From a virus (lineage: Duplodnaviria > Heunggongvirae > Uroviricota > Caudoviricetes), in the IMG/VR virus record IMGVR_UViG_2029527006_000005: a DNA stretch of 64,000 bases; one strand, 5' to 3'. Within the stretch, counting starts at the first letter, position 1. Every line of letters starts with the position of its first letter. The position numbers and the translations under genes are program-made. The notes beneath the pieces are model-generated. The model saw only the letters and a program-made list of their open reading frames with translations, was not told where the DNA came from and made no database searches. Positions 1-64,000 of the stretch are shown here, piece after piece.

Positions 1-1
1 T

Positions 2-2590
2 GCGACAAATCCAAGTACTCTACCAGTACTAAACAGTACATCTCTAACTGCAACTAATGCAGATATCACAGACCTAACCGTAACTGGAAAATCTGTTGTT
101 GGTGCTGTAACTTCTAGTGGTAAAGTAACTGCTGTTTCTGTTGAAACTGCAACAATCGCAAATGCTGCTGGTATTACACTAGCTAACGATGCAACTGCTG
201 CTGGTGACCTAACAGTTCAAGGAACACTTGTTCTAGCTGGTGGTTTAGACCTATCCGATGTTGATATTACTTCTAAGTCTATTACGACTACTGAAGGTGC
301 AACAATCGGTGGTAACCTATCTGTTGCTGGTACAGTTGACCTAAGTGGTGCTGATGTTACTGCTCTAAGTTTTGTAAGTACTGATGCTGATAAAACTAAC
401 ACATTCCCTAAACTACAATCTTCTGATTCTACTTTGGGTGCTGCGAAATCAACAACTCTAAACGTAACTGGTGTAAGTACCCTAGCTGGTGTTACTGCAA
501 CTACTCTAGATGTTACTGGTGCAAGTACATTTGCTGGCGTAACCGCAAGTGATGTAGCTACCACTACACTAGATGTTTCTGGTTCTGCTGCGTTTGATGG
601 TGGTATTACTTCTGGTAATTCTCAAGTTGAAATCCTTAAAAATACTTCTGTAACTGGTGATCTAAGCGTTTCTGGAACACTAACTGCTGGTGTTATCGAC
701 CTAAGTACTACTGACGTAACTGTTAAGTCTCTTAACTCACTTGGTAATGCTCACGTTGTTGGTGACCTAACTGTTGATGGTCAATTTGACCTAAGCTCTA
801 CTAACCTAGCTGCTCTATCTCTAGCGAGTTCTGGTAACACAACTGTTGGTGCTGACCTAGTTCTAACCACAGGTAACATTACTGGTTCACCAAAAGTTTC
901 TGGTACACTAAACGTAACAGGTGCGACAACCCTAGCTGGTGTTACAACTGGTGCGGCTACACTAAACTCTGCTACAGTAACATCTACTTTAGGTGTAACA
1001 GGTGCGACAACTCTAGCTGGTCTAACCGCTGGTGCTACTGGTGTAACAACCCTAGCAAGTTCAGGTAAAGCAACTCTTAACTCACTAGAAGTAACAAATG
1101 CTTCAGTAATGAAAGGTGACCTAACTGTTGAAGGCACTCTATTACCACAAGGTGGTCTAGATTTATCTGGTGCAGACATTTCTGCAAATAGTCTAGAACT
1201 AGCTGCTGGTGCTACTGTTGGTACTACTCTAGCTGTAACTACTGATGCAACTGTTGGTGGAACTCTAACTGTAACTGGTGCAAGTACTTTAGCTGCTGTA
1301 ACAGCAACTTCCGTAACTGGCTCTGGTGCTGGTAAGTTCGATACCGTAACCTCTGATAATGGTCTAACCGTTACTGCTGGTGGTGCAACTGTAACTGCTG
1401 GTGACCTAACCGTGACTGCTGGGAACATTGTTCAAAGTGGTGCGGCGAGTGCAACTGCTTCATTCAAGAAAACTGCTACTACAAACCTACATGTAGGTTC
1501 ACTAGTATGGGATGAAAGTAAGTACATTGCTGAAGTTGGTGGTGCTGTTCATATTAGTGGTGATCTAGACGTTGATGGTACTATTAACGCTGCGATTAAC
1601 TTAACTGGTCGTGATATTGCTCCACGTAGTATTGCAACTTCACAAGATATTACAGTTGGTACTACACTAGATGTAACTGGTCAGGCAACAATGGCATCTG
1701 CTATTATCGGTGAAGATGGTTCCCCTAACAACAACCTACAAGTTAACGGAAACGTTGTTTGTACTGGAAACTTTACTGTTCAGGGTCTAATCATTGGTAC
1801 ACTAGATCAGTCTACTTCTGATATTACAGTTAAGTCTGTAACAGCGACTACTTTCGTTAAAGGGGCAACTCTAGAAAGTACTGGTATCGCTACTATCGGT
1901 GGTAAACTAACCGTTAGTGCTGGTGGTGCTGCTGTAACTGGTGGAACTACATCTGATACACTAACTACTACTGGTATCGCAACTATTGGTGGTAAGTTGA
2001 CTGTTAGTGCTGGTGGTGCTGCTGTAACTGGTGGTCTAGCTTCTGATACTCTAACTGTAACTGGTCTAAGTACTCTAGCTGCTGTTAACGCAACTAACGT
2101 ATCTGCAAGTGGAACTCTAGCTGTAACCGGAACTTCTGCCTTTACTGGTAAAGTAACTGCTGCTGACCTAGAAAGTACTGGCACAATCACTGCTAATAAC
2201 TTAACTGTTACTGGTACATTGACTACTGATATTGCTGACCTAGTAACTGAATCTGTAACTACCAATCGTTATGCTGTTAAAGCTAAAGCAATGGAAAGTG
2301 TTGGTGCAACTTGGACTCCAGATGGTTCTAGTAACGTTTATAACATTACTCTAACTGCTGCATCCTTGACTATCCCATCATTCCCATACACTGTTGGTGA
2401 AGCTGGTTCTTGGTTCATCTATGTTACACAAGATGCTACTGGTGGTCGTACTATTAACTGGAACGCACCATTCGGTGTTGTTGGTGATAGTGAAATTAAC
2501 GGTACTGAAAACTCTGTATCCATCTGTCAAGTTGTTTACAGCGGTGTTGGTGACCGTCTAGATGTGTTCATTGCACAACGTAACCTATAA
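2..2590 (+). CDS. Long tail-fibre/virion fibre protein, 5'-truncated by window edge
   Basis: Frame is open from base 2 (ATNPSTLPVL...), so the track's TTG start at 434 is not the true start. T/G/A/V-rich beta-strand repeats; C-terminal QDATGGRTINW-type phage fibre tip. Confidence 0.75.
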   Translation, partial: ATNPSTLPVLNSTSLTATNADITDLTVTGKSVVGAVTSSGKVTAVSVETATIANAAGITLANDATAAGDLTVQGTLVLAGGLDLSDVDITSKSITTTEGATIGGNLSVAGTVDLSGADVTALSFVSTDADKTNTFPKLQSSDSTLGAAKSTTLNVTGVSTLAGVTATTLDVTGASTFAGVTASDVATTTLDVSGSAAFDGGITSGNSQVEILKNTSVTGDLSVSGTLTAGVIDLSTTDVTVKSLNSLGNAHVVGDLTVDGQFDLSSTNLAALSLASSGNTTVGADLVLTTGNITGSPKVSGTLNVTGATTLAGVTTGAATLNSATVTSTLGVTGATTLAGLTAGATGVTTLASSGKATLNSLEVTNASVMKGDLTVEGTLLPQGGLDLSGADISANSLELAAGATVGTTLAVTTDATVGGTLTVTGASTLAAVTATSVTGSGAGKFDTVTSDNGLTVTAGGATVTAGDLTVTAGNIVQSGAASATASFKKTATTNLHVGSLVWDESKYIAEVGGAVHISGDLDVDGTINAAINLTGRDIAPRSIATSQDITVGTTLDVTGQATMASAIIGEDGSPNNNLQVNGNVVCTGNFTVQGLIIGTLDQSTSDITVKSVTATTFVKGATLESTGIATIGGKLTVSAGGAAVTGGTTSDTLTTTGIATIGGKLTVSAGGAAVTGGLASDTLTVTGLSTLAAVNATNVSASGTLAVTGTSAFTGKVTAADLESTGTITANNLTVTGTLTTDIADLVTESVTTNRYAVKAKAMESVGATWTPDGSSNVYNITLTAASLTIPSFPYTVGEAGSWFIYVTQDATGGRTINWNAPFGVVGDSEINGTENSVSICQVVYSGVGDRLDVFIAQRNL
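1879..2035 (+). repeat. 90-bp-period intragenic duplication (TGIATIGGKLTVSAGGAAVTGG x2)
   Basis: Two near-identical DNA units 90 bp apart with synonymous differences. Confidence 0.85.
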
Positions 2591-2614
2591 TAGTAAACTA
2601 AGGAGAATAAATCA

Positions 2615-3247
2615 ATGATTTATGTAGCAGTAACTAAAAACGAATCAGGTGAATATGAAATTCTTAAAACCCTAACAAGCGTTATCAACCAACGTAGCCA
2701 TATTACTGGCACTACAATTGGTAACGTAACCTACCTAGACGCCGCAGGGCGTCTAGAACATGGCTTCTGGGAACAGGAAGATTTATACATCGATACTGGT
2801 GAATTCAAAGAATTTGATCGTAAAGAAGTTGAGTTTGATGATGTTGACGCTCGTGTAACCAATTCATATTTCTATAAACTAATGGATCTAGCTATAATTC
2901 GTGATGAAATGAAAAATCGTGTTCGTTCTTACCGTTCACAATTATCAACAAGTCAATACACTAAAGATGACAAAGTTTATGACATTTCTTCAGAAGGTCG
3001 TTTGGAACTACAAGGTCTAGTACTAGAATCTTTACTTGATTCTACTATTCAAAGTGTTTCAATGCGTTTACCAAGTGGTGAAGATGTAGAATTAACTGTA
3101 GCAGATCTTAAAGCTCTCTACCTTGAAATTGCATTATACCGCGATGGCTTGTTTGATACCGAAGCCCAACTTATGAGTGCAATTGATGCAGCGGCTGACT
3201 ACGAAGCAATTCGTGCAGCAGCAGTATGGGGCGACCAACCTCTCTAA
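2615..3247 (+). CDS. Tail-fibre-associated protein (DUF4376-like C-terminus)
   Basis: AGGAG RBS; follows fibre gene; helical C-terminus ending ...AIDAAADYEAIRAAAVW. Confidence 0.6.
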   Translation: MIYVAVTKNESGEYEILKTLTSVINQRSHITGTTIGNVTYLDAAGRLEHGFWEQEDLYIDTGEFKEFDRKEVEFDDVDARVTNSYFYKLMDLAIIRDEMKNRVRSYRSQLSTSQYTKDDKVYDISSEGRLELQGLVLESLLDSTIQSVSMRLPSGEDVELTVADLKALYLEIALYRDGLFDTEAQLMSAIDAAADYEAIRAAAVWGDQPL

Positions 3248-3250
3248 AAC

Positions 3251-3278
3251 AAAAAAGACCGCTTAAGCGGTCTTTTTT
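3251..3278 (+). terminator. Intrinsic terminator
   Basis: AAAAAAGACCGC-TTAA-GCGGTCTTTTTT. Confidence 0.85.
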
Positions 3279-3346
3279 ATTACCTACAACAAATGAGCTA
3301 TTATAGGGTAAATAATGATATATGAGCATATTCTGAGGAATTTTTA

Positions 3347-5296: not shown

Positions 5297-5297
5297 T

Positions 5298-5329
5298 AAA
5301 AAAAGGAGCCTTTCGGCTCCTTTCTTTTT
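5298..5329. terminator. Bidirectional terminator between convergent genes
   Basis: A7-GGAGCC-TTTC-GGCTCC-T-rich. Confidence 0.85.
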
Positions 5330-8371: not shown

Positions 8372-8400
8372 ATTATATCACATTTTTCTTGCTTTGTCCC
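8372..8400 (-). promoter_or_regulatory. GGGACA-N17-TATAAT promoter (copy 1)
   Basis: GGGACA aagcaagaaaaaTGTGa TATAAT. Confidence 0.8.
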
Positions 8401-8445
8401 AAGAAAAACGCAAAAGGCACAATCAATGTGCCTTTTATTTACTTC

Positions 8446-11404: not shown

Positions 11405-11433
11405 ATTATATCACATAATGTTTCGTTTGTCCC
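11405..11433 (-). promoter_or_regulatory. GGGACA-N17-TATAAT promoter (copy 2)
   Basis: GGGACA aacgaaacattaTGTGa TATAAT. Confidence 0.8.
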
Positions 11434-11451
11434 AAGATTTTTTAAATCTTT

Positions 11452-25509: not shown

Positions 25510-25950
25510 TTATCTTCCTTTCTTCTTCTGGAACTGCTTCACAGCTTTTACAATACTGCTACACATTCGCTTGGTCAAATACAATTCACAGTCTTCTACA
25601 TCAATGTATTTGAACTTATCAAGTTCAGGCTTTGTTTGACCGTACTTATTTGTGTAAGTACTAATACATTTTAGTTCTTTCGGTTCTGGCTTATATTTAG
25701 CGGTGTAATAAAATAATATAAGACGTTTTCCTTTTCTATACGATACATCACCAATCAAAAGGAGATCTTTTTCATCAATCTTAAAACTGGTTTCTTCATA
25801 ACACTCCCGAACAGCCGCTTCTGCATAGCTTTCTTCACCTTCAGCTTTTCCTTTAGGTAAATCCCAATGCTCTTGTCCAGTAGTGTGACCTATAAGTATC
25901 TGACCATCACGATAAAAAATTATTCCGCATGTGTATCGCATATTTTTCAT
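25510..25950 (-). CDS. Nudix hydrolase (T4 NudE-like)
   Basis: WDLPKG...E...AAVRECYEET Nudix box. Confidence 0.92.
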   Translation of the reverse strand: MKNMRYTCGIIFYRDGQILIGHTTGQEHWDLPKGKAEGEESYAEAAVRECYEETSFKIDEKDLLLIGDVSYRKGKRLILFYYTAKYKPEPKELKCISTYTNKYGQTKPELDKFKYIDVEDCELYLTKRMCSSIVKAVKQFQKKKGR

Positions 25951-25975
25951 CTCAATTAAATCATCAGATACCTAT

Positions 25976-26004
25976 AGTATATCACATTTTTTTCATTTTG
26001 TCCC
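25976..26004 (-). promoter_or_regulatory. GGGACA-N17-TATACT promoter (copy 3)
   Basis: GGGACA aaatgaaaaaaaTGTGa TATACT. Confidence 0.75.
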
Positions 26005-26008
26005 GATT

Positions 26009-27133
26009 TTATGCGAACATTTTAGCGACTTCAACCGTGCGTAGGTTTGCAACGTAAGAACGGATATTCTTAGGCTCTAGCTCACCATCTTTTACCATCT
26101 GATCAATGTCGCCAATAACAGTACCTTCATACTTGTCATAAACCTTGACGATTAGTTCTTCTAGTTCACCATCAACGGTACGTTGAATGTTGAAGTATTC
26201 TAGTACTTTGTATAGGAACTCTTCACCGCCTTGGTTATGAATGTTCATTCTGGATAGTACATCTACCATTTGCTCAGGAGTCTTCTTCCTGAAGGTTTTG
26301 ATCTCATCACCGAAAGTTTCAATGAATTTGTGGAACTTCACAAAACGTGCAGGTAGTTTAATCTGACCAACAGTGTAGTCTTTCTTTACATCAGCCGTTG
26401 TACGGGATAGTAGGTAAGACCACATGAAATCCGCACTGTACGCCTCTGTGCTCATCGTAGCAAACTTATTGATAGCTTCACCGTCATCTTTATTGAAGCT
26501 CTCTAAGCCCGGTAGAATGCGTTTAATCGCACCCCATCCCTTTAGCTGAAAGATGAATGTACTTGGTAGACGCTCGGATAGTGCTTTCTCAAACTCAACG
26601 TAAACGCGTTCTGGTGTTAGAGAATCAATCTCACCTTTTTTAACCATTTCCATTACCATAGCTTCAGTACTTTCATGTACTGTAAAATCACTATAACGAG
26701 TAGCAAAACGTGCTAGACGTAGTACACGTAGTGGATCTTCAGCAAAGTGTGGGCTGACATGACGTAGTACTTTTGCTTGTAGGTCGGCTTTACCATTATA
26801 CGGGTCAACGTGTTTCTGGAATACCGGATCGTAAGCAATTGCGTTGATGGTTAGATCGCGACGGAATAGGTCTTGCTCTAGAGTAACACCTTCAGTCTCT
26901 ACAGTGAAACCTTTGTATCCAGTTCCAGATTTACGCTCAACACGAGCTAGTGCATACTCATCACCTGCTGGGGATAGGAATACCGGGAAATCTGCTCCTA
27001 CTTGTTGATATCCCTGTGAGATTAGATATTGAATATCACGCTCTTTTGCACCAACAAGTACATAATCTTTGTCTTTAGGTTTTAGGCCAAGTAGTTTGTC
27101 ACGAACGAAGCCACCTACGATATATTTTTTCAT
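26009..27133 (-). CDS. cca: tRNA nucleotidyltransferase (CCA-adding enzyme, class II)
   Basis: VGGFVRD, DKDY, EYALARVERKSG, DLFRRDLTINA, EDPLRVLRLARF. Confidence 0.95.
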   Translation of the reverse strand: MKKYIVGGFVRDKLLGLKPKDKDYVLVGAKERDIQYLISQGYQQVGADFPVFLSPAGDEYALARVERKSGTGYKGFTVETEGVTLEQDLFRRDLTINAIAYDPVFQKHVDPYNGKADLQAKVLRHVSPHFAEDPLRVLRLARFATRYSDFTVHESTEAMVMEMVKKGEIDSLTPERVYVEFEKALSERLPSTFIFQLKGWGAIKRILPGLESFNKDDGEAINKFATMSTEAYSADFMWSYLLSRTTADVKKDYTVGQIKLPARFVKFHKFIETFGDEIKTFRKKTPEQMVDVLSRMNIHNQGGEEFLYKVLEYFNIQRTVDGELEELIVKVYDKYEGTVIGDIDQMVKDGELEPKNIRSYVANLRTVEVAKMFA

Positions 27134-27360
27134 TTATCACCCCTATTCCAGAATTTGTCCCATAGCGATTGTTCTTTCTTTTCGGCTTCTTCTTTTCTGC
27201 GTTTTCCACCATTGTATGCATCAGCGATATCAGATGGTAATAACCCAGCAGGTTTCTCATCAAAATTACGCCAACCATATTTGTCTTTCGGTGGGTAATA
27301 GTCATCATATGGTGTACCATCACCGCCTAAGCCCCAATCTTCTTCTAGTACTGCAATCAT
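27130..27360 (-). CDS. Hypothetical protein
   Basis: GGAG RBS; overlaps cca start. Confidence 0.55.
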   Translation of the reverse strand: MIAVLEEDWGLGGDGTPYDDYYPPKDKYGWRNFDEKPAGLLPSDIADAYNGGKRRKEEAEKKEQSLWDKFWNRGDK

Positions 27361-27361
27361 A

Positions 27362-27787
27362 TTAGCTACTCCATAAGAAACCATCACAGGCTTCGATAAT
27401 TTCTTTCACAAGTTGATAGTTTGAGTATTCTACACTAAGAAGGTTTTCAACGCAAGACTCTTGGAAGAATTCTTCCTCTGATTCAATATCTGAACGGATC
27501 GCTGCCTCGTTTTTCGATTCACAGGTTTTCGCGAAATGGTTAATTCCAAAGAAGTGTACAAATATAAATTTATTACTATAGATATAAAATGCCAGCCCAT
27601 TCGGGTCTTTAGCGTAATCCACTTCATCTTCTACTAATGCAATATTAATAGTAATTCTGTGTGACATGGTATTGATGTAAAATTCAGTCAATTCATCAAC
27701 TCTAATCCACTCATCTGGATCGTAGTCCAATCCAACTTTCTTAATATAGTTCAGTACTGAACGTAAATTCTCATTATTGATTAGCAT
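27362..27787 (-). CDS. Hypothetical protein, FFQ-motif family
   Basis: SEEEFFQESCV. Confidence 0.65.
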   Translation of the reverse strand: MLINNENLRSVLNYIKKVGLDYDPDEWIRVDELTEFYINTMSHRITINIALVEDEVDYAKDPNGLAFYIYSNKFIFVHFFGINHFAKTCESKNEAAIRSDIESEEEFFQESCVENLLSVEYSNYQLVKEIIEACDGFLWSS

Positions 27788-29189: not shown

Positions 29190-29771
29190 CTACTTCGAAA
29201 CATTGTTTAATGAATCTATGTGAATCGCTTTAAGAAGCTCATCACTCGATGTAAGAATTATAGCACCAATCTCTTCATCAGTGCAAGTACTAATTCCTGC
29301 ATCCATGAACCGTTCGATGTTTTGTTGAACAAAAAACGGGACATTCTTTTCTAAGTGCTCGGTAAATCGAGAATCACTCAGTAAAATTGTGTGCATTTTT
29401 GGTAACACAGTTTTAAAACCACGTCGCACACATGTATGTATGATACTCTCTAATTGTGCAAGATCCATATAGGTTGCTAGAGATAATGATTGAAATGCCA
29501 TGTCAAATGGTGACATTGGGGGAGGCATTTCTCGACAAATTACTTCAATAACACCAACAGTCAAATCGTTAACATCAAACTCAGGTCTTGAAACGGTTCG
29601 TAGTGATTCTAGTACCATATAAGATATAGAGGATAATGCAGTCTCATATGAGGGAAACGACATGTCCGGTAGTGTTTTGTCATGTACTGAAAAAATAGGA
29701 TAGCCACTAGAAGAAGAAATACCTTCTATTGGCATACCCTTGTACATAACACAATAACGATATTTAGTCAT
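29190..29771 (-). CDS. Hypothetical protein
   Basis: Long ORF in operon. Confidence 0.6.
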   Translation of the reverse strand: MTKYRYCVMYKGMPIEGISSSSGYPIFSVHDKTLPDMSFPSYETALSSISYMVLESLRTVSRPEFDVNDLTVGVIEVICREMPPPMSPFDMAFQSLSLATYMDLAQLESIIHTCVRRGFKTVLPKMHTILLSDSRFTEHLEKNVPFFVQQNIERFMDAGISTCTDEEIGAIILTSSDELLKAIHIDSLNNVSK

Positions 29772-30180
29772 AGTGTGTTCTTCCAATTGTGAAGTGGAAA
29801 GTATATTTAGATTGTAATCCTAGCTCTGCTCGTATCTTCCGAAAGAACGGGACTTCAAAATCTATAAAACAGTACAATCCAGCTTTCTTTGGATCTTTCT
29901 TCACATGAATGTACGGATAGTATCGTATCTTAACAACTTTACCATCATACTTTTTCCACACATCAGCGTTTGGTGGTTTTTCACCACGAACAATACTAAC
30001 ATGTGCTCCCCAAGAAGGGTCAGCTAAAGGAATGTGTAAATCAGTTCTAACAAAGTACTGGTAGTACTTAACTAACTCTTGGGGCAATTCTAGAATACAC
30101 CAGAAATCCGTGTTCTTTTTCATACCAGAACGTGGAGGGTCGTATCTAATCACCCCTTCGATTTCAATGTATTCTTGCAT
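29764..30180 (-). CDS. 2H phosphoesterase
   Basis: Two HxS/T motifs: AHVSIV and FHFTIG. Confidence 0.75.
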   Translation of the reverse strand: MQEYIEIEGVIRYDPPRSGMKKNTDFWCILELPQELVKYYQYFVRTDLHIPLADPSWGAHVSIVRGEKPPNADVWKKYDGKVVKIRYYPYIHVKKDPKKAGLYCFIDFEVPFFRKIRAELGLQSKYTFHFTIGRTHYD

Positions 30181-31955: not shown

Positions 31956-31984
31956 ATTATATCACATAAAAAGCGGTTTGTCCC
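31956..31984 (-). promoter_or_regulatory. GGGACA-N17-TATAAT promoter (copy 4)
   Basis: GGGACA aaccgcttttTATGTGa TATAAT, upstream of DUF2828. Confidence 0.8.
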
Positions 31985-32111
31985 AAGTTTTTGAAACAAA
32001 CCGCATATTTTTTAGTCTTGTACGTTATACGTTGCTTTTAACTCAACTTTCGTCATGCATGAAATTTCTGCTGGGGTTAAATTCATACTAGCAGGAATCC
32101 AGTACTGGTTA

Positions 32112-41376: not shown

Positions 41377-41405
41377 ATTATATCACAAAAAAACCCTTTT
41401 GTCCC
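41377..41405 (-). promoter_or_regulatory. GGGACA-N17-TATAAT promoter (copy 5), drives ncRNA
   Basis: GGGACA aaagggttttttTGTGa TATAAT. Confidence 0.8.
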
Positions 41406-41408
41406 AAC

Positions 41409-41798
41409 TTAAAGATAGGTACGCTTCAATTCAGTAGGTGAACGATCAAAGATTGCGTCAATAAATGCAATGTCCTCAAGGAGTTCAGTACTATCCTCTT
41501 TTCTACGCGAAGTTTTTTTGTACGGATTATTTATACCTGAAAAAATCACCTTCACCGGGGAGTCGGTATCAATCTCATTATCAATGAGAGTACAAGTATA
41601 AGAGAGCTTTAAGTACTTCTTATTCTCTTCTAGTGCTAAACGAGCTACTAATTCTTCTATACCAGTTAAATGTGAAATGCTATCAGATTCTTTCAAAAAG
41701 GTAATGGTGCACATAATACTTTTAGTATCGTACATATCAGTTACGTTCTTAACAGCACTAACACATTCTAGTCCAGAAAAATCAATATCTTGAATCAT
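41409..41798 (-). CDS. Hypothetical protein
   Basis: ATGA-coupled ORF. Confidence 0.55.
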   Translation of the reverse strand: MIQDIDFSGLECVSAVKNVTDMYDTKSIMCTITFLKESDSISHLTGIEELVARLALEENKKYLKLSYTCTLIDNEIDTDSPVKVIFSGINNPYKKTSRRKEDSTELLEDIAFIDAIFDRSPTELKRTYL

Positions 41799-42148
41799 CT
41801 AGTTCCCCATTTAATTACAGTAGTAGTTACTTGTTCTTCCCAAACATCAACAATATCGCAATCCACACCCTCTTTATCATAATAGAAGGGGGTAAGCATC
41901 TGTGACTCGGTAAGCCCTTGTTCATAACGAGTATGATACCCTTCTCCGGTCTCGGTGTCAATAAAAACTAGATCGTGAACACTGTTCCAGCGGGTGGTAT
42001 CTACCTGCTCATTGTGAAGTACTTCTAGTACTAAATCATCATCAAAAGCACCCATACTCTCGTTCCATTTCTGACCATAGAATGTAACTTTACCATATGA
42101 GTGTGCAAGACGTTCCATAACGTCTTGTGGGAATCGTTTTGTCTTCAT
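41795..42148 (-). CDS. Hypothetical phage protein
   Basis: RW...Y..GLTESQ pattern; GGAG RBS. Confidence 0.65.
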   Translation of the reverse strand: MKTKRFPQDVMERLAHSYGKVTFYGQKWNESMGAFDDDLVLEVLHNEQVDTTRWNSVHDLVFIDTETGEGYHTRYEQGLTESQMLTPFYYDKEGVDCDIVDVWEEQVTTTVIKWGTR

Positions 42149-42201: not shown

Positions 42202-42843
42202 TTATGCCTGTTCTGTCAACACTTTTTTCAATGCTTTGTTATGACGATTATAAGCCCCTACATGAGCCGCACAGAGGCCGCTGAGGTAATCGGCTACCTT
42301 GGCTTCACGCATCTCATTGCGGTGCTTCACGATGGCCTTGTACTCTTCCGTACCCTCTTCACGCTTACGCAAACGATAATGATGTAGAGATGTAGCACGA
42401 CTAGTAATCAAAGACTGACCATGCTCTTTGTAGCGAGCCAAGAAATCTTCAAGGTTTGGATAGCGAGATCCACGTAGCTGATTACACTTTCTGCACATAG
42501 TGTTGAAGTTTGATTCAACATCGGGACCACCTTGGGATTTAAGAATGTTGTGGTCAACGGTCATTAGTTGCCAAAATTCACCCCAAGTAGTTTCTGCACG
42601 TCCATAAACGTTTAAGTGCATCATACCAAAGATAGCATGAGTACCTTTACCTTCTTCTAAACGTACTTCATGAGATTCGATCCCGCAGCAAATACATTTA
42701 CTATTCTTCAAGAAAGTTGCAACTTTCTCTGGGAAGTAGTTAAACTTCACACCATCAACTTCTGCACTTGTCATCGGACCAGAAGTTTTTAACGTTTTCA
42801 GAACATCTAATGGTAGTACTTTATTGACTTTATAACCCAGCAT
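42202..42843 (-). CDS. HNH endonuclease-domain protein
   Basis: CICCG ... TVDHNILKSQGG..N..TMCRKCNQLRG. Confidence 0.8.
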   Translation of the reverse strand: MLGYKVNKVLPLDVLKTLKTSGPMTSAEVDGVKFNYFPEKVATFLKNSKCICCGIESHEVRLEEGKGTHAIFGMMHLNVYGRAETTWGEFWQLMTVDHNILKSQGGPDVESNFNTMCRKCNQLRGSRYPNLEDFLARYKEHGQSLITSRATSLHHYRLRKREEGTEEYKAIVKHRNEMREAKVADYLSGLCAAHVGAYNRHNKALKKVLTEQA

Positions 42844-55742: not shown

Positions 55743-57551
55743 TCAATTAGTATGTTTTGTACGTTCAGTACATTCTTGTTGTTTACCTTTATTAAAGCCT
55801 CTTGATGATGGATTTCCCAAATACCCTGATACTCTACGGATAACTGACATTGTTTTGTCATTTCTGTTATTACAACTTGGACAATGGAATCCATCACGAT
55901 CAACAGCAAACTCACCCTCAAAGGAACATGCATAGCACTTGTCAACTGGTTGGTTAATACCAAAGTACGGCACTCTGAAATAAGCATAGTCAACCAACGC
56001 TTCTAGTGCTTTTAGGTTGTTTTTAAGGTTAGGTGTCTCAACGTAACTAATGTTACCTCCGTTGCTCAAGTAAGCAAAATCTTCTTCGTAGTTCCACTTC
56101 TCGAATGGTGTACTCTCAACCCATACTGGTTGGTGGAATGAGTTGGTAATGTAGTCGCGTTTGAGTACTGAAGGGAATTTACCCTCAATTGCACGTGCAA
56201 ACTTGTAACAAAGGCTCTCTGCTGGTGTACCGTAAAGACTGAAAGCTAAACGGCTTTGTGTTGAGAAGTCTTTACATTTTGTCTTCATGTAACTTAGAAT
56301 AGAAGTACAGAAGGTTTTGTCAATGTTTCCTTTAAGAATCTCACTGCACTCTGCTAAACCGACATACCCAATGCTAATACTAGCATATCCATCATAGAAT
56401 AGCTGTTCGATTGTATCCTCTGGATCTAACCTTGCAAGTACTCCTTCGGTGAATAGGATTGGGTTTTGTTTTGCTTTCATACTCTTTAAACGCTCTACAC
56501 GGTTCATCTGAGCACGATACGCCATTTGCATATGTTGGTCTATCTTAGTATAGAAATCGCCGTCAGAGGCCGATTCAAGGGCTAATAATGGAAGATTAAT
56601 GCTTACAACGCCAAGGTTGAAACGTCCATTGTATTGTTCAACTTCTTCTTTGTTTTCCCAACGACTAAGGAAGGAACGACAGCCCATAGGTGTAACTGCT
56701 TCTGAAGTACTACCAGTTACTTTACGGTTCAAAGGTACGGAAACGAAGTCTGGGTAGATGCGTTTAGCTGCACATTGAAGGGCTTTCTGTTTTAAATCAT
56801 AATTCACATCAGTACTGTTCATGTTCGTTCCTTGCTCTAGGAAGAACACAACTTTAGGAAACACTGGTGTGCTTCCATCAATCCCTAAACCATTTTCGTG
56901 CACATCAAGATATGCCTCGGTAATCATTCTACCGAACTTTGTAGTACTCAAACCTAGGCTTAATGTAACAAATGGTGTTTGACCGTTGCTTGATGTTATT
57001 GTGTTCACTTGATATAGAAGTGCTTGCATTGCATCATAGACTTCTTTACGTAATGAGTACTCAACGTATTCATCGCTGAGGTTAAATTCTTTTTGTAGTT
57101 TTAGTAGTTTTTGATACGATTTCTCTACATATGGCTCTAAACCGCGATCAATGTGCGGTAGAGACTGTCCACCGTATTGACTAGCTGAAACAGCTAAAAC
57201 GATTTGTGTTAGTACTGTACTTGCTACACCAATACTATTTGGCGAACCTACTTGTGCGTTTCCTATTTTGAAACCACGTTTAAGCATGTCCTCATAATTA
57301 ACTAAACAACAGTTAGTAAGAGGGCTAATGTAGTAATCTAAGTCATGAATGTGACCATATCCATCTTTATGCCATTGCATTAAATCATCAGCAACAACAT
57401 CCTCCGCGTAGTGTTTGGAAAGGATACCTGCAAGTAAATCACGATGCGTGTTAACTATCTTGGCATCTTTATTTGCATTCTCATTTAGTAGATCTTGATT
57501 ACTTTGGTTCAAGAAATTGGTTACATCATTGTATAAATTATCATTTTTCAT
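55743..57551 (-). CDS. nrdD: Anaerobic (class III) ribonucleotide reductase, no ATP cone
   Basis: ENANKD, HIHDLD, NCCL, GQTPF, MGCRSFL, PAESL, RRVSGYL glycyl-radical site. Confidence 0.97.
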   Translation of the reverse strand: MKNDNLYNDVTNFLNQSNQDLLNENANKDAKIVNTHRDLLAGILSKHYAEDVVADDLMQWHKDGYGHIHDLDYYISPLTNCCLVNYEDMLKRGFKIGNAQVGSPNSIGVASTVLTQIVLAVSASQYGGQSLPHIDRGLEPYVEKSYQKLLKLQKEFNLSDEYVEYSLRKEVYDAMQALLYQVNTITSSNGQTPFVTLSLGLSTTKFGRMITEAYLDVHENGLGIDGSTPVFPKVVFFLEQGTNMNSTDVNYDLKQKALQCAAKRIYPDFVSVPLNRKVTGSTSEAVTPMGCRSFLSRWENKEEVEQYNGRFNLGVVSINLPLLALESASDGDFYTKIDQHMQMAYRAQMNRVERLKSMKAKQNPILFTEGVLARLDPEDTIEQLFYDGYASISIGYVGLAECSEILKGNIDKTFCTSILSYMKTKCKDFSTQSRLAFSLYGTPAESLCYKFARAIEGKFPSVLKRDYITNSFHQPVWVESTPFEKWNYEEDFAYLSNGGNISYVETPNLKNNLKALEALVDYAYFRVPYFGINQPVDKCYACSFEGEFAVDRDGFHCPSCNNRNDKTMSVIRRVSGYLGNPSSRGFNKGKQQECTERTKHTN

Positions 57552-57600: not shown

Positions 57601-57629
57601 ATTATATCACATATAACCCGGTATGTCCC
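57601..57629 (-). promoter_or_regulatory. GGGACA-N17-TATAAT promoter (copy 6), nrdDG
   Basis: GGGACA taccgggttataTGTGa TATAAT. Confidence 0.8.
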
Positions 57630-57643
57630 TTGATCTGGATCAA
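57630..57643. promoter_or_regulatory. FNR box
   Basis: TTGAT-CTGG-ATCAA, perfect consensus, abutting the -35. Confidence 0.75.
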
Positions 57644-57702: not shown

Positions 57703-57703
57703 A

Positions 57704-58147
57704 TTACCACATTTGACAGTGTGGATGGTCATAAATTTCATCAAAGAAGTCAATAGTGTTGAGGAATTCCAATGCTGATTCTTTACTTTCGAACCGCATA
57801 AATTGATCACCATCATCACAACCTATGAACCATACACAGTACTTATGAGTACTAAAACGTTCTAGGAACTCATCTCGGTAGTATTCATGTTGAAGTGCTT
57901 GTTCTTCCCGCATACCTTTGTAAGTTGGTTTTTCATACCAACATTCCAAATCGGTCATTACCGTTTCATTGTACTCACCAAACACTGGTGATACACGTTC
58001 ACAAACTGGATTTAGAGCACTGTTAGCAACAGTATAATATCCGTGTTGGTCTGGGTCATCAACTAAAAGATATCCTAAAAAGTCTCTAGTACCCATCTTT
58101 TTATAGTATGGCTCAACCTGAATACTATTACTTTCTTGTAATAACAT
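57704..58147 (-). CDS. Hypothetical protein
   Basis: Coupled ORF; GCDD motif. Confidence 0.6.
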   Translation of the reverse strand: MLLQESNSIQVEPYYKKMGTRDFLGYLLVDDPDQHGYYTVANSALNPVCERVSPVFGEYNETVMTDLECWYEKPTYKGMREEQALQHEYYRDEFLERFSTHKYCVWFIGCDDGDQFMRFESKESALEFLNTIDFFDEIYDHPHCQMW

Positions 58148-59244: not shown

Positions 59245-59246
59245 AA

Positions 59247-59690
59247 TTATTCCTTTGGTTTAATGGTTAGTTCGCGAATCTCTTCCATTTCATTTGATAG
59301 CCTACGCATAACGAATTGAAGTTCATATTCGTACTTCTTAAGTACTTCTAAGACTTGTTCATTGTACATGTCAATACACTCTTGTTCATTATCAAATACG
59401 CATAAACCAATACCAGCATATGAGCGGTATCCGGTATTATCAAAAGGTGGAATGAGTTGCTTGAGGTTAGGGGAACCATCTTTTTTGAGTTTAGCTAGAC
59501 CTACGTGACTGTAGTAAATTTTTGGTTCTAGATCCGCATCACAAAAATCTTTAGAACCAGCAACATACACTTCAGTTGGCTTGACGTGTCGAATAGCTTT
59601 CTTATCTAACTCTTTGCGGTAGTCACAAACCCATAGCTTCTGACCAACGTATTTTTCACTATCAGTTAAATCTGTAATATCAATTTGCAT
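59247..59690 (-). CDS. Hypothetical protein (paralog of previous ORF)
   Basis: VKPTEV ... VFDNEQEC..MYNEQV. Confidence 0.6.
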   Translation of the reverse strand: MQIDITDLTDSEKYVGQKLWVCDYRKELDKKAIRHVKPTEVYVAGSKDFCDADLEPKIYYSHVGLAKLKKDGSPNLKQLIPPFDNTGYRSYAGIGLCVFDNEQECIDMYNEQVLEVLKKYEYELQFVMRRLSNEMEEIRELTIKPKE

Positions 59691-60742
59691 TATTCAAACC
59701 TCTTGTACTGTGTAGTAACAAAATCCTTACGAGTTTCTTGACGTTGCATTCCTAATAAATCTACTAGTAAATCGTCAATTTCTGGACCCCAAGCAACACC
59801 AAGCACTGCATTACCTTCATATGTATTAATATCAGTAACTGTATTTGGGATAGCAATTTGGAGTGGATCAAATGTTGACCATTGGATTTGTGCACGTTGT
59901 TCTTGTACTTGAGCTTCTAGTTGACGTACACGAGCAGCTTCCTCAACTCGACGTTGACGCTCTTTAACTAGTTCTGATTCTAGACGATCAATCTGCTTCT
60001 GCTGTGCCTGTAGAGTACATCTCATGTTCTCCAATTGGGCACTGATGTTATCTACCTTGTTTTGAAGTGATTCAATCTGTTCAATCATGCCGATTAGCAT
60101 AGGTAGAATGATTTTAATTGAAGTGAATGCTTGGTTGATAGCAGAAGGAATGAAGAACTCATACGATAGATCTTTAGCGTGGCGTTCAATATCATAGTAC
60201 TGAATAGGACAAACCAACCATGTGTTTAGGTTGTTTTTCTTAGCTTCACTAACGAAATTGTTATAAGCGTAGTGTACATATTTCTCATAATTACCAATTA
60301 GAATTTTATCTTTCCTGACTAATTCCATTTTCACATACTGTGTTGGAATAACTAGTAGACCTAGTTTTTCAGCTACTTCTAGAATTCCGGGAACACTTGT
60401 TCGACAGGATTTAAGTACTTTATCTTTCTTTCCGTACTTTGAAAATTCAGGTCCACCATAAGAACTATATCCAATTGAAGAAATAACATCAACTGGTTTG
60501 AAGTCCAAATAGTTCACTTCTTTATCTTTGGCAGATAGTCGTTCGTTGAACTTTTCAGTCATTTCACTGATAACGTTGTTTAAATCTGATCGTTTTGTAC
60601 TACCCAATTCCTTTGCAGCATTAACTAGGGCAGAACTAACATCGATGAACTGTTGAACCTCACCCGCTACTTCTTCAGCGTATTTTACGCCTTTCTTAGA
60701 ATTGCCGTACTTTACTTCTTTTAATAGATCTGCTAGAAGCAT
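59690..60742 (-). CDS. Coiled-coil hypothetical protein
   Basis: AGGAG RBS before MLLADL; long heptad region; FDPL..., WGPE. Confidence 0.65.
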   Translation of the reverse strand: MLLADLLKEVKYGNSKKGVKYAEEVAGEVQQFIDVSSALVNAAKELGSTKRSDLNNVISEMTEKFNERLSAKDKEVNYLDFKPVDVISSIGYSSYGGPEFSKYGKKDKVLKSCRTSVPGILEVAEKLGLLVIPTQYVKMELVRKDKILIGNYEKYVHYAYNNFVSEAKKNNLNTWLVCPIQYYDIERHAKDLSYEFFIPSAINQAFTSIKIILPMLIGMIEQIESLQNKVDNISAQLENMRCTLQAQQKQIDRLESELVKERQRRVEEAARVRQLEAQVQEQRAQIQWSTFDPLQIAIPNTVTDINTYEGNAVLGVAWGPEIDDLLVDLLGMQRQETRKDFVTTQYKRFE

Positions 60743-60752
60743 AAATGCTCTC

Positions 60753-61121
60753 CTATGTATGAATAATTTCTTTAATACCAAACTTCTTAATAGCAATACT
60801 GCAAATCTCACATGGTGCAGCAGTAATAGGATTACCATTATTGTCAACACGTGCGATCAGTAATGTGTGTACTTCTTTTCCTTTAGCAGCAACTAAAGCA
60901 GCAATCTCTGCGTGAACAAAGATTGCTTCAGGACGACCAGCCATTACAGCAAAGTGCTTCTGTACTGGATGTGACAGAGTGTAGGAATTGGTCTTGGTGC
61001 TGATTACACGACCTTTTTTGTCCAGTGCACGAGCAATAACGCGAAAGCGTCTACGTTCACTGGACTGTTCCAGAGGGGGCATATTGTTCAGTACTTTAAC
61101 TAATTTCTGTATCTCTGTCAT
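60753..61121 (-). CDS. Zn-dependent cytidine/dCMP deaminase-fold protein
   Basis: HAE and PCEIC motifs. Confidence 0.8.
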   Translation of the reverse strand: MTEIQKLVKVLNNMPPLEQSSERRRFRVIARALDKKGRVISTKTNSYTLSHPVQKHFAVMAGRPEAIFVHAEIAALVAAKGKEVHTLLIARVDNNGNPITAAPCEICSIAIKKFGIKEIIHT

Positions 61122-61747
61122 TTCCTCACCAAGTCGATTCCGTATTTTAATGAAAGTTCAGCTTCGTACACTTTGAATGTCTCTTTCTCTAAGTGCTCGT
61201 CAATTTCTTCGTATTCATCAATACTACACGTTTTCCGGTGCTCTGTCAAGGCTTGGATTGTTTTTTTCATGCACTCAATATCATCAGTGTATATTTCAAT
61301 CTGTTCTTTATCTAGTACATCATTCTTCCAATCTTCAGTGAGTCTCCATGAAGTATGAAGTTTTCTCGATTTGGCAGTAATCACTGATTTAGAAATGTTG
61401 ATACTATACACTTCTTTGAATTTAGCACTAGCTTCTTCTTCTGTATAATCCCCATACTTTTTCAATACTAAATTATACATATTATCAATTGCTTCTTCAT
61501 ATGTCCAACCGCCACAATCCAATTCATAATCATGACCTGACTCATACTTCTCTTCACCTTCATGTTTGAAGGGAACCATTACTTCAATCCACAACTGTAA
61601 CTTGGTGTTTAGTGGTTTATAATCCTCAATTCGTCCAGTACTTGGACATACCATATGTGGCTCTATTTCAATATGAACCATAGCACCATCTTTATTGATA
61701 AATGCAGGATGTTCAGTAACCCACCAATATTTGTCACATGTATTCAT
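61118..61747 (-). CDS. Hypothetical protein
   Basis: GGAG RBS; HDYELDCGG.TYEEAI. Confidence 0.65.
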   Translation of the reverse strand: MNTCDKYWWVTEHPAFINKDGAMVHIEIEPHMVCPSTGRIEDYKPLNTKLQLWIEVMVPFKHEGEEKYESGHDYELDCGGWTYEEAIDNMYNLVLKKYGDYTEEEASAKFKEVYSINISKSVITAKSRKLHTSWRLTEDWKNDVLDKEQIEIYTDDIECMKKTIQALTEHRKTCSIDEYEEIDEHLEKETFKVYEAELSLKYGIDLVRK

Positions 61748-61769
61748 AAATTCTCCATTCAATTAAAGC

Positions 61770-61880
61770 GAAAGTACTATCGCCCTCTGTTTTGGTATCT
61801 TTGAGTAGGGATACAGAGTATTCGCTGTGCGGTACGGACTTATACTGGATTTTGCCAGAGGCACGGCTTATAGTACTTTC
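61770..61880. ncRNA. Candidate ~110-nt structured intergenic RNA
   Basis: Perfect 11-bp terminal inverted repeat enclosing nested stems. Confidence 0.5.
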
Positions 61881-61887
61881 TTATTTG

Positions 61888-62229
61888 TTATCCGCGACTC
61901 AAGTCACCGATTAGGAATGAACCATCTTTCATTTCAAGTACTTGTACTTCTACTTCACCATCAAATTCAGTTTCGTCATCAAAGTAGTACTCAGTGATGC
62001 TGCGAATGTCTTTAATTTGAACATCATAACATTCACCATCTAGATCATAACCGAAGTCCGGTACATCAGCGTCAGCACGACTATCTTCATCGATTTCAAT
62101 CCAAACATAGTCTTCAGTAACGTTAGCAAAGTCTGCTTCCATGATACGGTCTTCATCAAAGAGAGCTTTCATATCATCAACGCCTTGACGTGCCATGTAC
62201 TCAATCAAAAAGTCTTTAGCTTGGGACAT
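61888..62229 (-). CDS. Hypothetical acidic protein
   Basis: AAGGA RBS; coupled ORF. Confidence 0.65.
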   Translation of the reverse strand: MSQAKDFLIEYMARQGVDDMKALFDEDRIMEADFANVTEDYVWIEIDEDSRADADVPDFGYDLDGECYDVQIKDIRSITEYYFDDETEFDGEVEVQVLEMKDGSFLIGDLSRG

Positions 62230-62231
62230 AA

Positions 62232-62420
62232 TTATTCCTTATTACAAATGTACTCAAATGATGGTAGTCCATTCACGAACACAATGTTCGAATCGGCTAC
62301 TGCACAGTTATCTGGAGCATTCGCACCAAATGGATGATATTCGGTATGACCGGGATCGTGTTGGAAATTAGTAACACAACCACTTAGAAGTACTGCTAGA
62401 CTTAGAATAATAATTTTCAT
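62232..62420 (-). CDS. Small lipoprotein
   Basis: MKIIILSLAVLLSGC lipobox. Confidence 0.75.
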   Translation of the reverse strand: MKIIILSLAVLLSGCVTNFQHDPGHTEYHPFGANAPDNCAVADSNIVFVNGLPSFEYICNKE

Positions 62421-62917
62421 TAGATAGTCCTCTTGCGAATTGGTTTAGATGAATCTGGTCTGAATTTATTGGTAGAACTGAAGTAACCCTTACCTTCAGG
62501 ACATGATTTATCGGCTGCTTTGTGCAAGCTGGGACTTTTCCCGCAGTGCAAACATTCAAAACCAACAATAGGAAGTGCATCTTCTACATAGTGTGGATCT
62601 TCGAGAATCATGACTGATACATAGTCATCAAATGCTTTTAGATCAACGAATCCATCAGTAATAAAATGCACGTTGTCATATTCAAGACCGTTTAGTAGAG
62701 ACTCGACTAAACCACCACCATCACCAACATTGAAATCCCAACCAGTATTGAACTCTTCAAGAGTACAGAAGTGTAGTTTAGTAGTAACTTTAACTACTTG
62801 TACTTCAGAATTAGCAGAAAGTGCATGTACTGTTTCATTAACAATTTTCTTTGTATGTTCCCAACGGTCCATATCAGTGAAAGAACCGGACGCATCTACT
62901 GCTACTAAAATTTTCAT
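62420..62917 (-). CDS. Short vWA-like protein with C-terminal Cys/His cluster
   Basis: VAVDASGS, FITDG, CLHCG..H...C. Confidence 0.65.
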   Translation of the reverse strand: MKILVAVDASGSFTDMDRWEHTKKIVNETVHALSANSEVQVVKVTTKLHFCTLEEFNTGWDFNVGDGGGLVESLLNGLEYDNVHFITDGFVDLKAFDDYVSVMILEDPHYVEDALPIVGFECLHCGKSPSLHKAADKSCPEGKGYFSSTNKFRPDSSKPIRKRTI

Positions 62918-62945
62918 AATTAACTCCAGTTGATTTGATAGGGGA

Positions 62946-62974
62946 ATTATATCAAGACACAAATCCCCTGTCAA
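62946..62974 (-). promoter_or_regulatory. Consensus sigma70 (early) promoter with extended -10
   Basis: TTGACA-N17-TATAAT with TG at the extended position. Confidence 0.85.
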
Positions 62975-62977
62975 CCA

Positions 62978-63823
62978 TTATTTTAGGGTGTCACGCCATT
63001 TATTCAACTTCACTAGCATATACGAAAGAAATTCCCGTTCAATTTCTTCTGGAGTCATCCCCGGACATTGTAACGCAAACATATCCATTGCACAGATTGC
63101 TAAATCAACCGCTTCACCTTTAACACCATCAGTACCTGCTTCTTTGTAAGATAGACCATCAGCGATGTTCATCTCAAGAGTCATTTCACCTAGTTCTTCG
63201 TTAGCTTTGCGAAGTACATAGTTTTCAGAACGGTAAGCATCGGAATTCTTTGGACCAAGACCAACACTCATATTGAACATAGATGTTAGTACTGGTTCAT
63301 CTAAATCAATTTGTTTGATGCGGTATTTTTTATCCATACTTCTCCATTCGTCGTGTGGGACAATGTTGTATGGGCTTAGTTCTGGATCAAAAACAGTCTC
63401 TTCTACTTTTGGTTTTAGTAGTGTATCAAGGCCATCTTTCATTGCTTTCTTCTGATTTTTAGTACAGAATTGTTCGAAATAAATTGATGCCCGACCACTG
63501 ATTTCAAGTAACTGATAGAACTCTTGAATACGGCGTGTATGTTTATCTTCGCCTTGGTGATGCTTATGAGCATACGCTAAACGGTAGATAGCTAGAAGTA
63601 CTTCACCATCAGGAGTAATCTTGTACTCATGGATAGCTTGGTCGTATAAGTCTTGTTGACCACATGAATTATATTCACCCCACAAACCGCTCGTTACCCA
63701 ATTAATCATTTTGTTTTTAATTAGATAATCTAAATTTTCAGACCACTTACCTTGATATTCACATGAGCGGATAGTAAAACCACCATTGTGTTTAGCGTGA
63801 TATAGAATCTTCTCTTTATCCAT
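62978..63823 (-). CDS. Protein with C-terminal MazG-like NTP pyrophosphohydrolase domain
   Basis: KANEELGE...GEAVDLAICAMD...KLNKW. Confidence 0.7.
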   Translation of the reverse strand: MDKEKILYHAKHNGGFTIRSCEYQGKWSENLDYLIKNKMINWVTSGLWGEYNSCGQQDLYDQAIHEYKITPDGEVLLAIYRLAYAHKHHQGEDKHTRRIQEFYQLLEISGRASIYFEQFCTKNQKKAMKDGLDTLLKPKVEETVFDPELSPYNIVPHDEWRSMDKKYRIKQIDLDEPVLTSMFNMSVGLGPKNSDAYRSENYVLRKANEELGEMTLEMNIADGLSYKEAGTDGVKGEAVDLAICAMDMFALQCPGMTPEEIEREFLSYMLVKLNKWRDTLK

Positions 63824-63894
63824 GATACTTCTCCGTTAGTACTTCACGATATACTTGTTTTCTTTGCATAATCACCTCAAAAGAAAAGGGAGCA

Positions 63895-64000
63895 TTAGCT
63901 CCCTTTGTATTGTTTTTTACGTTTAGTGCAGTTCTTCCAAGAACAGCTTCTTCTTACACAGATATCGTCCCAATGGGTACGAAGTTGTTTGTGCTTACGA
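63895..64000 (-). CDS. 3' end of a basic hypothetical protein (partial)
   Basis: ...RKHKQLRTHWDDICVRRSCSWKNCTKRKKQYKGS*; terminator-like hairpin 63884-63906. Confidence 0.45.
   Translation of the reverse strand, partial: RKHKQLRTHWDDICVRRSCSWKNCTKRKKQYKGS

Follow-up and report, generated by a model that had tools for sequence, protein, structure and literature searches.

Why should a phage genome from which many short palindromes have almost disappeared carry one of them, AGTACT, as its most frequent hexamer? This question is raised by a stretch of 64,000 nucleotides, referred to here as the window, from the IMG/VR virus record IMGVR_UViG_2029527006_000005 (Caudoviricetes), in which a preliminary description had noticed the repeated AGTACT and had likened it to the highly iterated palindromes (HIPs) of cyanobacteria. 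The window corresponds to bases 182,596-246,595 of a virus genome of 359,777 bp (37.8% G+C), which nucleotide similarity places among the Rak2-like jumbo myoviruses of Enterobacterales; by the same measure its nearest relatives, at approximately 78% identity, are the Salmonella phages Munch and 7t3 and the Klebsiella phage fENko-Kae01. Genes were called for this work (n = 474, 85% of the genome), and 434 of the 474 (92%) are located on the minus strand. AGTACT is a real, selected and clade-specific iterated palindrome whose signal lies at the level of DNA, follows a graded symmetric motif and is embedded in early promoters. No paper tying this word to Rak2-like jumbo phages was found in the literature searched; the RaK2 and CBB papers report putative methyltransferases and unspecified methylation and nothing further, and the 'SCAI' of the RaK2 paper is a culture medium without any link to the ScaI site AGTACT.

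Over-representation and grammar of the word

The element under study is present across the entire window:

1-64,000: AGTACT palindrome, 164 copies, mean spacing about 390 bp; 142 in called genes (all three frames), 22 in the 9.1 kb outside them

The resulting density of 2.56 per kb is far above that of dinucleotide-preserving shuffles, which gave 23.0 ± 4.6 copies (maximum 38), and the genes of the window hold 142 copies as compared to 37.8 ± 4.6 following synonymous-codon shuffling. In the whole genome AGTACT is the most frequent hexamer, with 1014 copies (about 1 per 350 bp, 8.5-fold the expectation from composition), and none of the 180 hexamers of the same composition (median count 122) approaches this number. 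For the 474 genes together, 826 copies were counted against 230 ± 13 in a within-gene synonymous-codon shuffle (z = 44), making AGTACT the top outlier among all 4096 hexamers, with every frame being 3.3-3.9-fold enriched; its density is 3.4 per kb outside called genes versus 2.7 per kb inside them. A dicodon-chain null, in which frame 0 is fixed by construction, left frame 1 at 156 versus 94 expected and frame 2 at 288 versus 181. An artefact of codon or dipeptide usage can thus be rejected in view of the non-coding density, the synonymous shuffle and the dicodon-chain null. By comparison, Escherichia coli K-12 contains 400 copies in 4.64 Mb (0.086 per kb), and at 2.8 per kb the phage genome is 33-fold denser.

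In this regard, most of what the preliminary description had claimed was borne out. AGTACT occurs at every one of the positions it listed (14, 25, 377, 704, 1283, 1877, 2069, 2174 and 3019), the ten sites between 55280 and 57220 were recovered, and occurrence in any frame as well as in intergenic DNA was corroborated. Its estimate of 3-4 sites per kb applies to the two stretches it had sampled but is too high for the window as a whole. The collapse it had feared under a dicodon-preserving null did not take place, nor did other hexamers of equal composition turn out to be equally frequent. The Markov comparison that it had proposed had a mixed outcome, since the excess over composition is large while a maximal-order model accounts for 921 of the 1014 copies. 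The reason is that shorter words contained in AGTACT are in excess too (GTAC 2.5-fold, AGTAC 4.6-fold and GTACT 4.2-fold in the genome), and the signal is therefore a graded motif built on a GTAC core rather than an all-or-none hexamer.

The word has also left its mark on proteins. Of all Ser-Thr pairs, 58% are written AGT-ACT, compared to 16% expected from codon usage, and the dipeptides themselves are in excess (Ser-Thr 656 versus 441 expected, Val-Leu 693 versus 538). As the reversed dipeptides Thr-Ser and Leu-Val show no excess in the same gene set, it is the DNA word that has shaped protein sequence and not the reverse.

A general bias in favour of palindromes can be dismissed, as the next most enriched palindrome in the genome reaches only 1.85-fold. 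On the contrary, 27 of the 64 hexamer palindromes are present at 0-5 copies in the 360 kb genome (among them CTGCAG, GGATCC, GAGCTC, GTCGAC, CCATGG, GGTACC, CGTACG and AAGCTT), with CACGTG, GTGCAC, TCGCGA and GAATTC among those tolerated. Across the clade, 20-30 of the 64 occur at 0-2 copies, and the tetramer GCGC is at zero in all five clade genomes examined; no avoided palindrome was found in Vibrio phage 2.275.O, and one in phage PA5oct. The contrast with the avoidance of palindromes by phages, to which the preliminary description had drawn attention, is accordingly sharper than claimed, with approximately 25 other hexamer palindromes and GCGC absent or nearly so.

Purge lists vary with host genus. 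RaK2 (JQ513383) additionally purges CTAG-containing words and holds 49 GGTACC (KpnI) sites, at an observed/expected ratio (O/E) of 1.96, of which there are none in the present genome, Munch, GAP32 and 121Q. In PA5oct (MK797984), which is without AGTACT enrichment, the top tetramer is another palindrome, TGCA (2.1-fold, with CTGCAG at 3.0-fold), an excess that may be codon-driven or a weaker analogue.

The grammar of the motif was resolved from its flanks. The GTAC core is preceded by A in 54% and followed by T in 56% of instances; GTAC words with neither good flank are enriched 0.7-1.9-fold, those with one 2.1-2.9-fold and those with both 8.5-fold, so that the two flanks together give about two-fold more than an additive effect. 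The GTAC-core words GGTACC and CGTACG have zero copies, and the core as a whole is for that reason probably not protected. The enrichment of half-sites fits a binding-energy matrix and also a reader that works on one strand at a time. When 4715 sites from five genomes were pooled, their context proved to be mirror-symmetric in a weak but consistent manner, with a preference upstream for A at -9 to -7, T at -4/-3 and C at -1 (37%, G being at about 10%) and the complement downstream; the best octamer in this pool is CAGTACTG, within an A/T-context footprint of approximately 24 bp, and the same symmetric flank pattern is seen in non-coding sites and in each frame.

Plus-strand counts are balanced (GTACT 1710 versus AGTAC 1648) despite the location of 92% of genes on one strand, from which it follows that the signal resides in DNA and not in mRNA; a signal at the RNA level is likewise discarded, given that both half-site orientations are equally enriched. 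One-sided half-sites (696 versus 634) are distributed evenly along the genome except for a single 3.9 kb desert. Spacing is essentially Poisson, with a coefficient of variation of 0.98 and each short spacing occurring 1-7 times as compared to about 2.9 expected, which excludes regular spacing or phasing. No peak was detected at gene starts or stops, only a dip at both, and lineage-specific genes carry 2.95-3.16 AGTACT per kb versus 2.46 in ancient core genes. Closely spaced pairs are no more frequent in the genome than under a Poisson process; examples in the window are:

14..30: close AGTACT pair, 11 bp apart
30054-30068: similar pair
42018-42032: similar pair
57838-57853: similar pair

Clade range, conservation and promoter placement

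AGTACT was counted in nine genomes of the clade and in six outgroups (copies per genome):

AGTACT-rich clade: this genome 1014; Munch 850; RaK2 937; GAP32 1011; 121Q 903
AGTACT-rich clade, continued: CBB 1235; EJP2 1312; Serratia BF 1072; CMSTMSU 1049
Outgroups: PA5oct 15; Atu_ph07 25; XacN1 0; SCTP-2 88; T4 29
Outgroup Vibrio phage 2.275.O: AGTACT 81; control 98

All nine Rak2-like enterobacterial jumbo phages counted show the excess, the reversed-word control having 134-187 copies in each of them, and enrichment in four relatives amounts to 7.2-8.4-fold. The six outgroup counts are all at or under their controls, including that of Vibrio phage 2.275.O, the closest relative found outside the clade (primase 43% identical). 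A scan for AGTACT triplets established no independent lineage with a genome-wide excess among the viral-collection matches listed; dense loci outside the clade, on contigs 5-64% complete, were either patchy over the whole contig or tandem coding repeats. Such repeats occur in two unrelated viral contigs, IMGVR_UViG_3300017648_000055 and IMGVR_UViG_3300029882_000001, which have a repeat-rich protein in common (71-73% identity) whose tandem coding repeats are rich in GTAC/AGTACT (3.5-4.6 per kb locally); in the latter contig 55 of the 64 hexamer palindromes are missing in 8.4 kb.

Conservation, a test for which the preliminary description had called, was expressed as the proportion of AGTACT sites of this genome that remain intact in BLAST-aligned orthologous DNA, as compared to the average hexamer:

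Munch: AGTACT intact 54%, all hexamers 31%; AGTACT ranks 24 of 2339 words
GAP32: AGTACT intact 38%, all hexamers 17.5%
121Q: AGTACT intact 30%, all hexamers 17%
RaK2: AGTACT intact 28%, all hexamers 15%

Retention is therefore above background in all four comparisons, by 1.7-2.2-fold, and sites have accumulated about 27% fewer substitutions than their flanks. Lost sites mostly became TGTACT/AGTACA or transition products, and about half of all sites have turned over at 78% identity. The picture suggested by these alignments is one of many redundant sites, each of which would be weakly constrained.

Although the word is scattered over the chromosome, its position is fixed in one class of promoters and it is excluded from another. 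Eleven sigma70-type early promoters of the form AAAAGTACTTGCAT-N14-GTATAATG are clustered at genome 314,988-332,212, outside the window, in the putative terminal-repeat region, which is AGTACT-dense (45-59 sites per 10 kb). In each of the eleven, AGTACT abuts or overlaps the -35 box, and in 4 of them a second copy abuts the -10 box. The same clustered arrangement is found in Munch (7 promoters), 121Q (14) and GAP32 (7), and in 11 of 37 promoters of RaK2 and 14 of 42 of 121Q the word lies in the spacer at an invariant distance, adjoining the -10 box (+15 from the start of the -35 box); neither arrangement is present in Vibrio phage 2.275.O or PA5oct. On the other hand, the most common phage promoter class, TTGGGACAAA-N11-TGTGATATAATA, in which a GGGACA -35-like box is combined with an extended -10, has AGTACT in 1 of 47 promoters versus about 10 expected. 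Five members of this class are located in the window, all on the minus strand, and about 33 more elsewhere in the genome:

~8,372-8,405, minus strand: TTGGGACAAA-N11-TGTGATATAATA promoter
~11,405-11,438, minus strand: promoter of the same class
~31,956-31,989, minus strand: promoter of the same class
~41,377-41,410, minus strand: promoter of the same class
~57,601-57,634, minus strand: promoter of the same class

Neither a primase site nor a purely mutational drive readily accounts for placement at RNA polymerase contacts in one class together with exclusion from the other; to judge from the promoter sequences, such placement looks like the operator of a regulator or a methylation-sensitive promoter. 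Two further matches to the early-promoter pattern, located in the window, are probably due to chance:

29286..29291 (genome 211886), minus strand: AGTACT followed by TGCA...TATAAT, within coding DNA
56437-56442 (genome 239037): second promoter-like match, regular-expression hit, within coding DNA

A separate word bias may also relate to promoters. Genes avoid TAAATA (47 versus 181) and TATTTA (15 versus 159) relative to the synonymous shuffle, and the remaining TATTTA is the best-conserved hexamer between genomes (80% versus Munch), as would be expected if the minus strand carried late promoter cores of the T4-like kind (TATAAATA). Genes also avoid GGAGGT and TCCAGG (1 versus 56).

Candidate readers and competing explanations

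What, then, reads the word? The evidence for the explanation that we favour, namely that selection maintains AGTACT for recognition in double-stranded DNA through a protein peculiar to the clade, a methyl mark, or both, leaves its chances about evenly balanced. The reader would be a factor found only in the clade: a sequence-specific DNA-binding protein, the conserved orphan N6-adenine methyltransferase of these phages, or the two together, one marking the word and the other reading it. Early transcription might be switched by binding to, or methylation of, the AGTACT copies in promoters, and the scattered copies might provide a dense sequence label over the whole 350 kb chromosome that is missing from host DNA. 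If sites are many, weak and redundant, with protein coding as the sole limit on them, Poisson spacing, site turnover and a higher density in less constrained DNA would follow.

A candidate for such marking is an orphan small N6-adenine methyltransferase of 175 aa (PF05869/TIGR01712/phrog_111; genome 292,353-292,880, minus strand), which might methylate AGTACT. Homologues are present in 14 of 14 clade genomes, including the five newest, which were not counted for AGTACT, and in 0 of 6 outgroups. The gene is part of a clade-specific block (g373, g375 and g378; genome 290,667-293,421) that is syntenic in five genomes; its neighbour g378 has a beta-repeat plus helical model (pLDDT 69.5) and is not obviously a nuclease. 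In two relatives, CMSTMSU (MH494197) and Salmonella phage SD-15_S21 (OR699188), the methyltransferase gene looks fragmented (in-frame stops) or truncated; the CMSTMSU record, which bears the flag UNVERIFIED, nevertheless contains 1049 AGTACT. In the genome under study, PF01555, PF00145 and PF02086, the three main DNA methyltransferase families, gave no match. One further candidate lies in the window:

42202..42843, minus strand: HNH endonuclease gene, 213 aa (Pfam HNH, E = 1.2e-6; phrog_23285; homologues in Munch, RaK2, GAP32 and 121Q)

This endonuclease, one of 65 clade-specific core proteins, is a mere candidate for an enzyme that may act on AGTACT. Other clade-specific proteins assigned by Pfam include a Rv2179c-like exonuclease and a deaminase-like protein, none of which can be linked to AGTACT, and a protein-atlas search with two small conserved clade-specific proteins yielded nothing informative. 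The hunt for a methylase or DNA-binding protein that the preliminary description had suggested thus turned up the orphan PF05869 enzyme and singled out no binding protein.

Several observations weigh against a duplex reader of this kind. The co-occurrence of methyltransferase and AGTACT represents a single evolutionary event, and 65 of 184 core proteins (35%) share the phyletic pattern of the enzyme, i.e. they are kept in the four AGTACT-rich genomes compared and are missing from both outgroups compared. PF05869 is a widespread family (1259 phage records), the phages with the nearest non-clade homologues have no AGTACT excess, and the characterised members of the family (T1, HP1 and VT2 Dam) presumably target GATC. 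The search among the 65 proteins, most of which are without a Pfam family, gave no reader; an HU/IHF-type protein was not detected as a PF00216 match in the genome; and the literature searched holds no methylome, digest or binding data for AGTACT in these phages. Furthermore, half-sites alone are enriched about 2-2.9-fold and the flanks are only about two-fold synergistic, while Poisson spacing, uniform density and modest conservation would also result from a mutation bias in which the word had little function or none.

A more specific form of the duplex-reader explanation is that AGTACT constitutes a sequence-encoded 'self' label, in which a clade protein, possibly with a methyltransferase, would read some 1000 copies per chromosome so as to distinguish the phage's DNA from that of the host, given the 33-fold difference in density, and, when bound at -35/-10, would time the shut-off of early transcription. 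This proposal is put forward tentatively and we regard it as rather unlikely.

A functionless molecular drive, in which a clade-specific repair or recombination bias (e.g. a mismatch endonuclease or methylation-linked repair) converts near-cognate words to AGTACT, letting it build up where the encoded proteins permit, appears improbable. It would account for the Poisson spacing, for a density that is even among genes of different age and rises where constraint is lacking, for the modest constraint on each site, and for a clade-specific trait that co-occurs with clade-specific nucleases and a methyltransferase; E. coli Vsr/Dcm is a precedent for over-representation driven by repair. However, no single-mismatch neighbour of AGTACT is depleted relative to the synonymous shuffle, as would befit a source word (AGTATT 0.96, AATACT 0.88, with most neighbours being enriched), and the excess is far above the known Vsr effect. 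There is no match to a cytosine-5 methyltransferase (PF00145), no search for Vsr itself having been made. Exact promoter placement and exclusion imply selection on position, and the weak symmetric flanks resemble a binding footprint.

The possibility of a primase start site, which we judge quite improbable, has to be considered together with a second peculiarity of these genomes. Outside the window, the plus strand is free of AGT for 3,892 bp (genome 306,692-310,584), the next-longest AGT-free run being 477 bp, and ACT-free runs also exist in Munch (25,611-27,566; 1,955 bp) and 121Q (161,802-169,313; 7,511 bp); RaK2 and GAP32 have no comparable desert. These deserts are coding DNA adjoining the putative terminal-repeat region, with an O/E for ACT of 0.01-0.03 and with CTC, TCT, CTA and CTG low too. 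GTAC-core sites occur within them at 1.2-1.8 times the genome density, nearly all as AGTACA/TGTACT, the next-best word of the matrix. Since GTAC-core sites persist there, the function of the GTAC word appears to be still wanted, and ACT to have been removed from one strand for a separate reason.

Under the primase explanation, a gp61-like primase would read 5'-ACT-3' or 5'-GTACT-3' on a single strand, the primer pppGUACU plus a cryptic 3' base corresponding to six template bases, and the palindrome would combine a site on each strand, the two overlapping within six coding bases. A gp61-like protein of 352 aa is indeed encoded (genome 105,674-106,732), and it is 64-90% identical within the clade; identity falls to 43% for the Vibrio sister phage and 26-33% for the remaining outgroups, and none of these phages has the AGTACT excess. 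The purging of ACT from one strand with GTAC-core sites kept on the other, as well as the independent enrichment of half-sites, would agree with such a reader. T4 primers are pentamers, and T4 primase uses GCT/GTT, one letter off ACT; the sites of T4 gp61 (GTT/GCT) and T7 gp4 ((G/T)(G/T)GTC) are likewise short single-strand words used by a DnaG-type primase, and a pentamer primer would fit a six-base template. Nevertheless, ACT itself is at approximately 1.04-fold, so that no shortage of trinucleotide sites lies behind an 8-fold excess of the hexamer, and no word is comparably over-represented in the Vibrio phage, the primase of which is homologous. The swap of AGTACT for AGTACA/TGTACT in the deserts is equally predicted by a duplex reader, as is the desert pattern in general; a comparison of flank asymmetry at half-sites did not separate the duplex from the single-strand reading. 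Half-sites lack replication-linked polarity outside the desert, and the fixed -35/-10 placement and exclusion from the other promoter class are left unexplained. To our knowledge, primase words are non-palindromic and have not been reported as enriched, nor are we aware of a comparable excess in any phage whose primase site has been established.

It is very doubtful that the reader is instead a host factor of Enterobacterales, such as a nucleoid-associated or division-control protein that the phage recruits or titrates. Every AGTACT-rich phage does infect Enterobacterales (Escherichia, Salmonella, Klebsiella, Cronobacter, Pectobacterium or Serratia), and relatives on Vibrio, Pseudomonas, Agrobacterium, Xanthomonas and Salicola are without the excess, but the range of hosts cannot be separated here from the phage clade, T4 is likewise an E. 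coli phage without excess, and no independent lineage with a genome-wide excess emerged among the dense viral contigs sampled. The most concrete host candidate was SlmA, whose binding site we take to be GTGAGTACTCAC, centred on AGTACT. It was rejected: the 12-mer GTGAGTACTCAC has 0 copies and TGAGTACTCA 4, G is under-represented at -1 (about 10%), and among the 16 octamers none is less frequent than GAGTACTC, with 16 copies.

Finally, a by-product of restriction avoidance and codon usage, in which AGTACT is the safe word that absorbs codon pairs displaced from approximately 25 forbidden palindromes, deserves hardly any credence: purge and excess do appear together in the clade and are both missing from the sister phage, but the excess is as large in non-coding DNA and survives shuffles that keep amino acids and codon usage, the dipeptides encoded by the forbidden words are different ones, no other tolerated palindrome exceeds 1.85-fold enrichment, and conservation of AGTACT sites over background already contradicts this view.

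Relation to known systems and biological meaning

The nearest parallel is provided by HIP1 (GCGATCGC) and the alternate highly iterated palindromes of cyanobacteria, of which Elhai is said to have given an account in 2015. Common to both are a chromosome-wide excess of a short palindrome in all frames and in non-coding DNA, conservation, lineage specificity and co-occurrence with an orphan methyltransferase. Unlike HIP1, AGTACT is an AT-rich hexamer with a GTAC core that is found in virulent phages beside a purge of other palindromes and is built into one promoter class; CGATCG has only 5 copies in the genome, and the co-occurring methyltransferase is a small PF05869 adenine enzyme that is a candidate only. 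The HIP-like character proposed by the preliminary description therefore stands as far as its iterated, frame-independent, conserved and clade-specific nature and the accompanying methyltransferase are concerned, while none of the functions it had listed (methylase/repair, nucleoid organization, recombination or self-recognition) was shown.

Other systems share individual features. SPO1 TF1 is an abundant phage protein that prefers phage DNA, its targets including the early promoters that cluster within the terminal repeat, and T4 uses hydroxymethylcytosine; in both, a dense chromosome-wide feature sets phage DNA apart from that of the host. Those labels are modified bases, whereas the label proposed here would consist of a sequence word, methylated or not, in a genome without an HU-type protein (PF00216). 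Chi (GCTGGTGG), KOPS and DNA uptake sequences are also short words kept at high density for a DNA-processing machine, but they are asymmetric and polar, whereas AGTACT is palindromic and without strand bias. Chi itself is abundant in this genome, with 21 copies on the plus and 36 on the minus strand (57 in total versus about 3 expected, or about 1.5 per strand), relatives having 18-29 in total. The targets of ScaI/Eco255I and of RsaI/CviQI/KpnI (AGTACT, GTAC and GGTACC) correspond to the same word or core, and adenine methylation of the GTAC core is known for M.CviQI and M.KpnI. Restriction-modification targets are, however, avoided in phages whereas AGTACT is enriched, and beyond the lack of matches to the three main methyltransferase families the only nuclease lead is a generic HNH protein.

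These phages are extreme avoiders of palindromes whose commonest hexamer is nevertheless a palindrome, one frequent enough to distort the choice of codons and dipeptides in genomes of 350 kb from at least five genera. This implies a genome-wide system for reading or marking DNA in well-sampled phages that are therapeutic candidates, of which no description was found in the literature searched. With it, the study of highly iterated palindromes gains a tractable system: the phages are lytic and grow on E. coli K-12, there is only one candidate methyltransferase to consider, the copies in promoters are defined, and a sister phage is free of the trait. Digestion with ScaI or RsaI should give hundreds to thousands of fragments unless AGTACT is modified, and AGTACT density offers a simple signature of the clade for metagenomes. 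If the proposal of a self label is true, these phages, the otherwise unmodified DNA of which survives by the purging of restriction sites, would carry a label made of sequence and not of a modified base.

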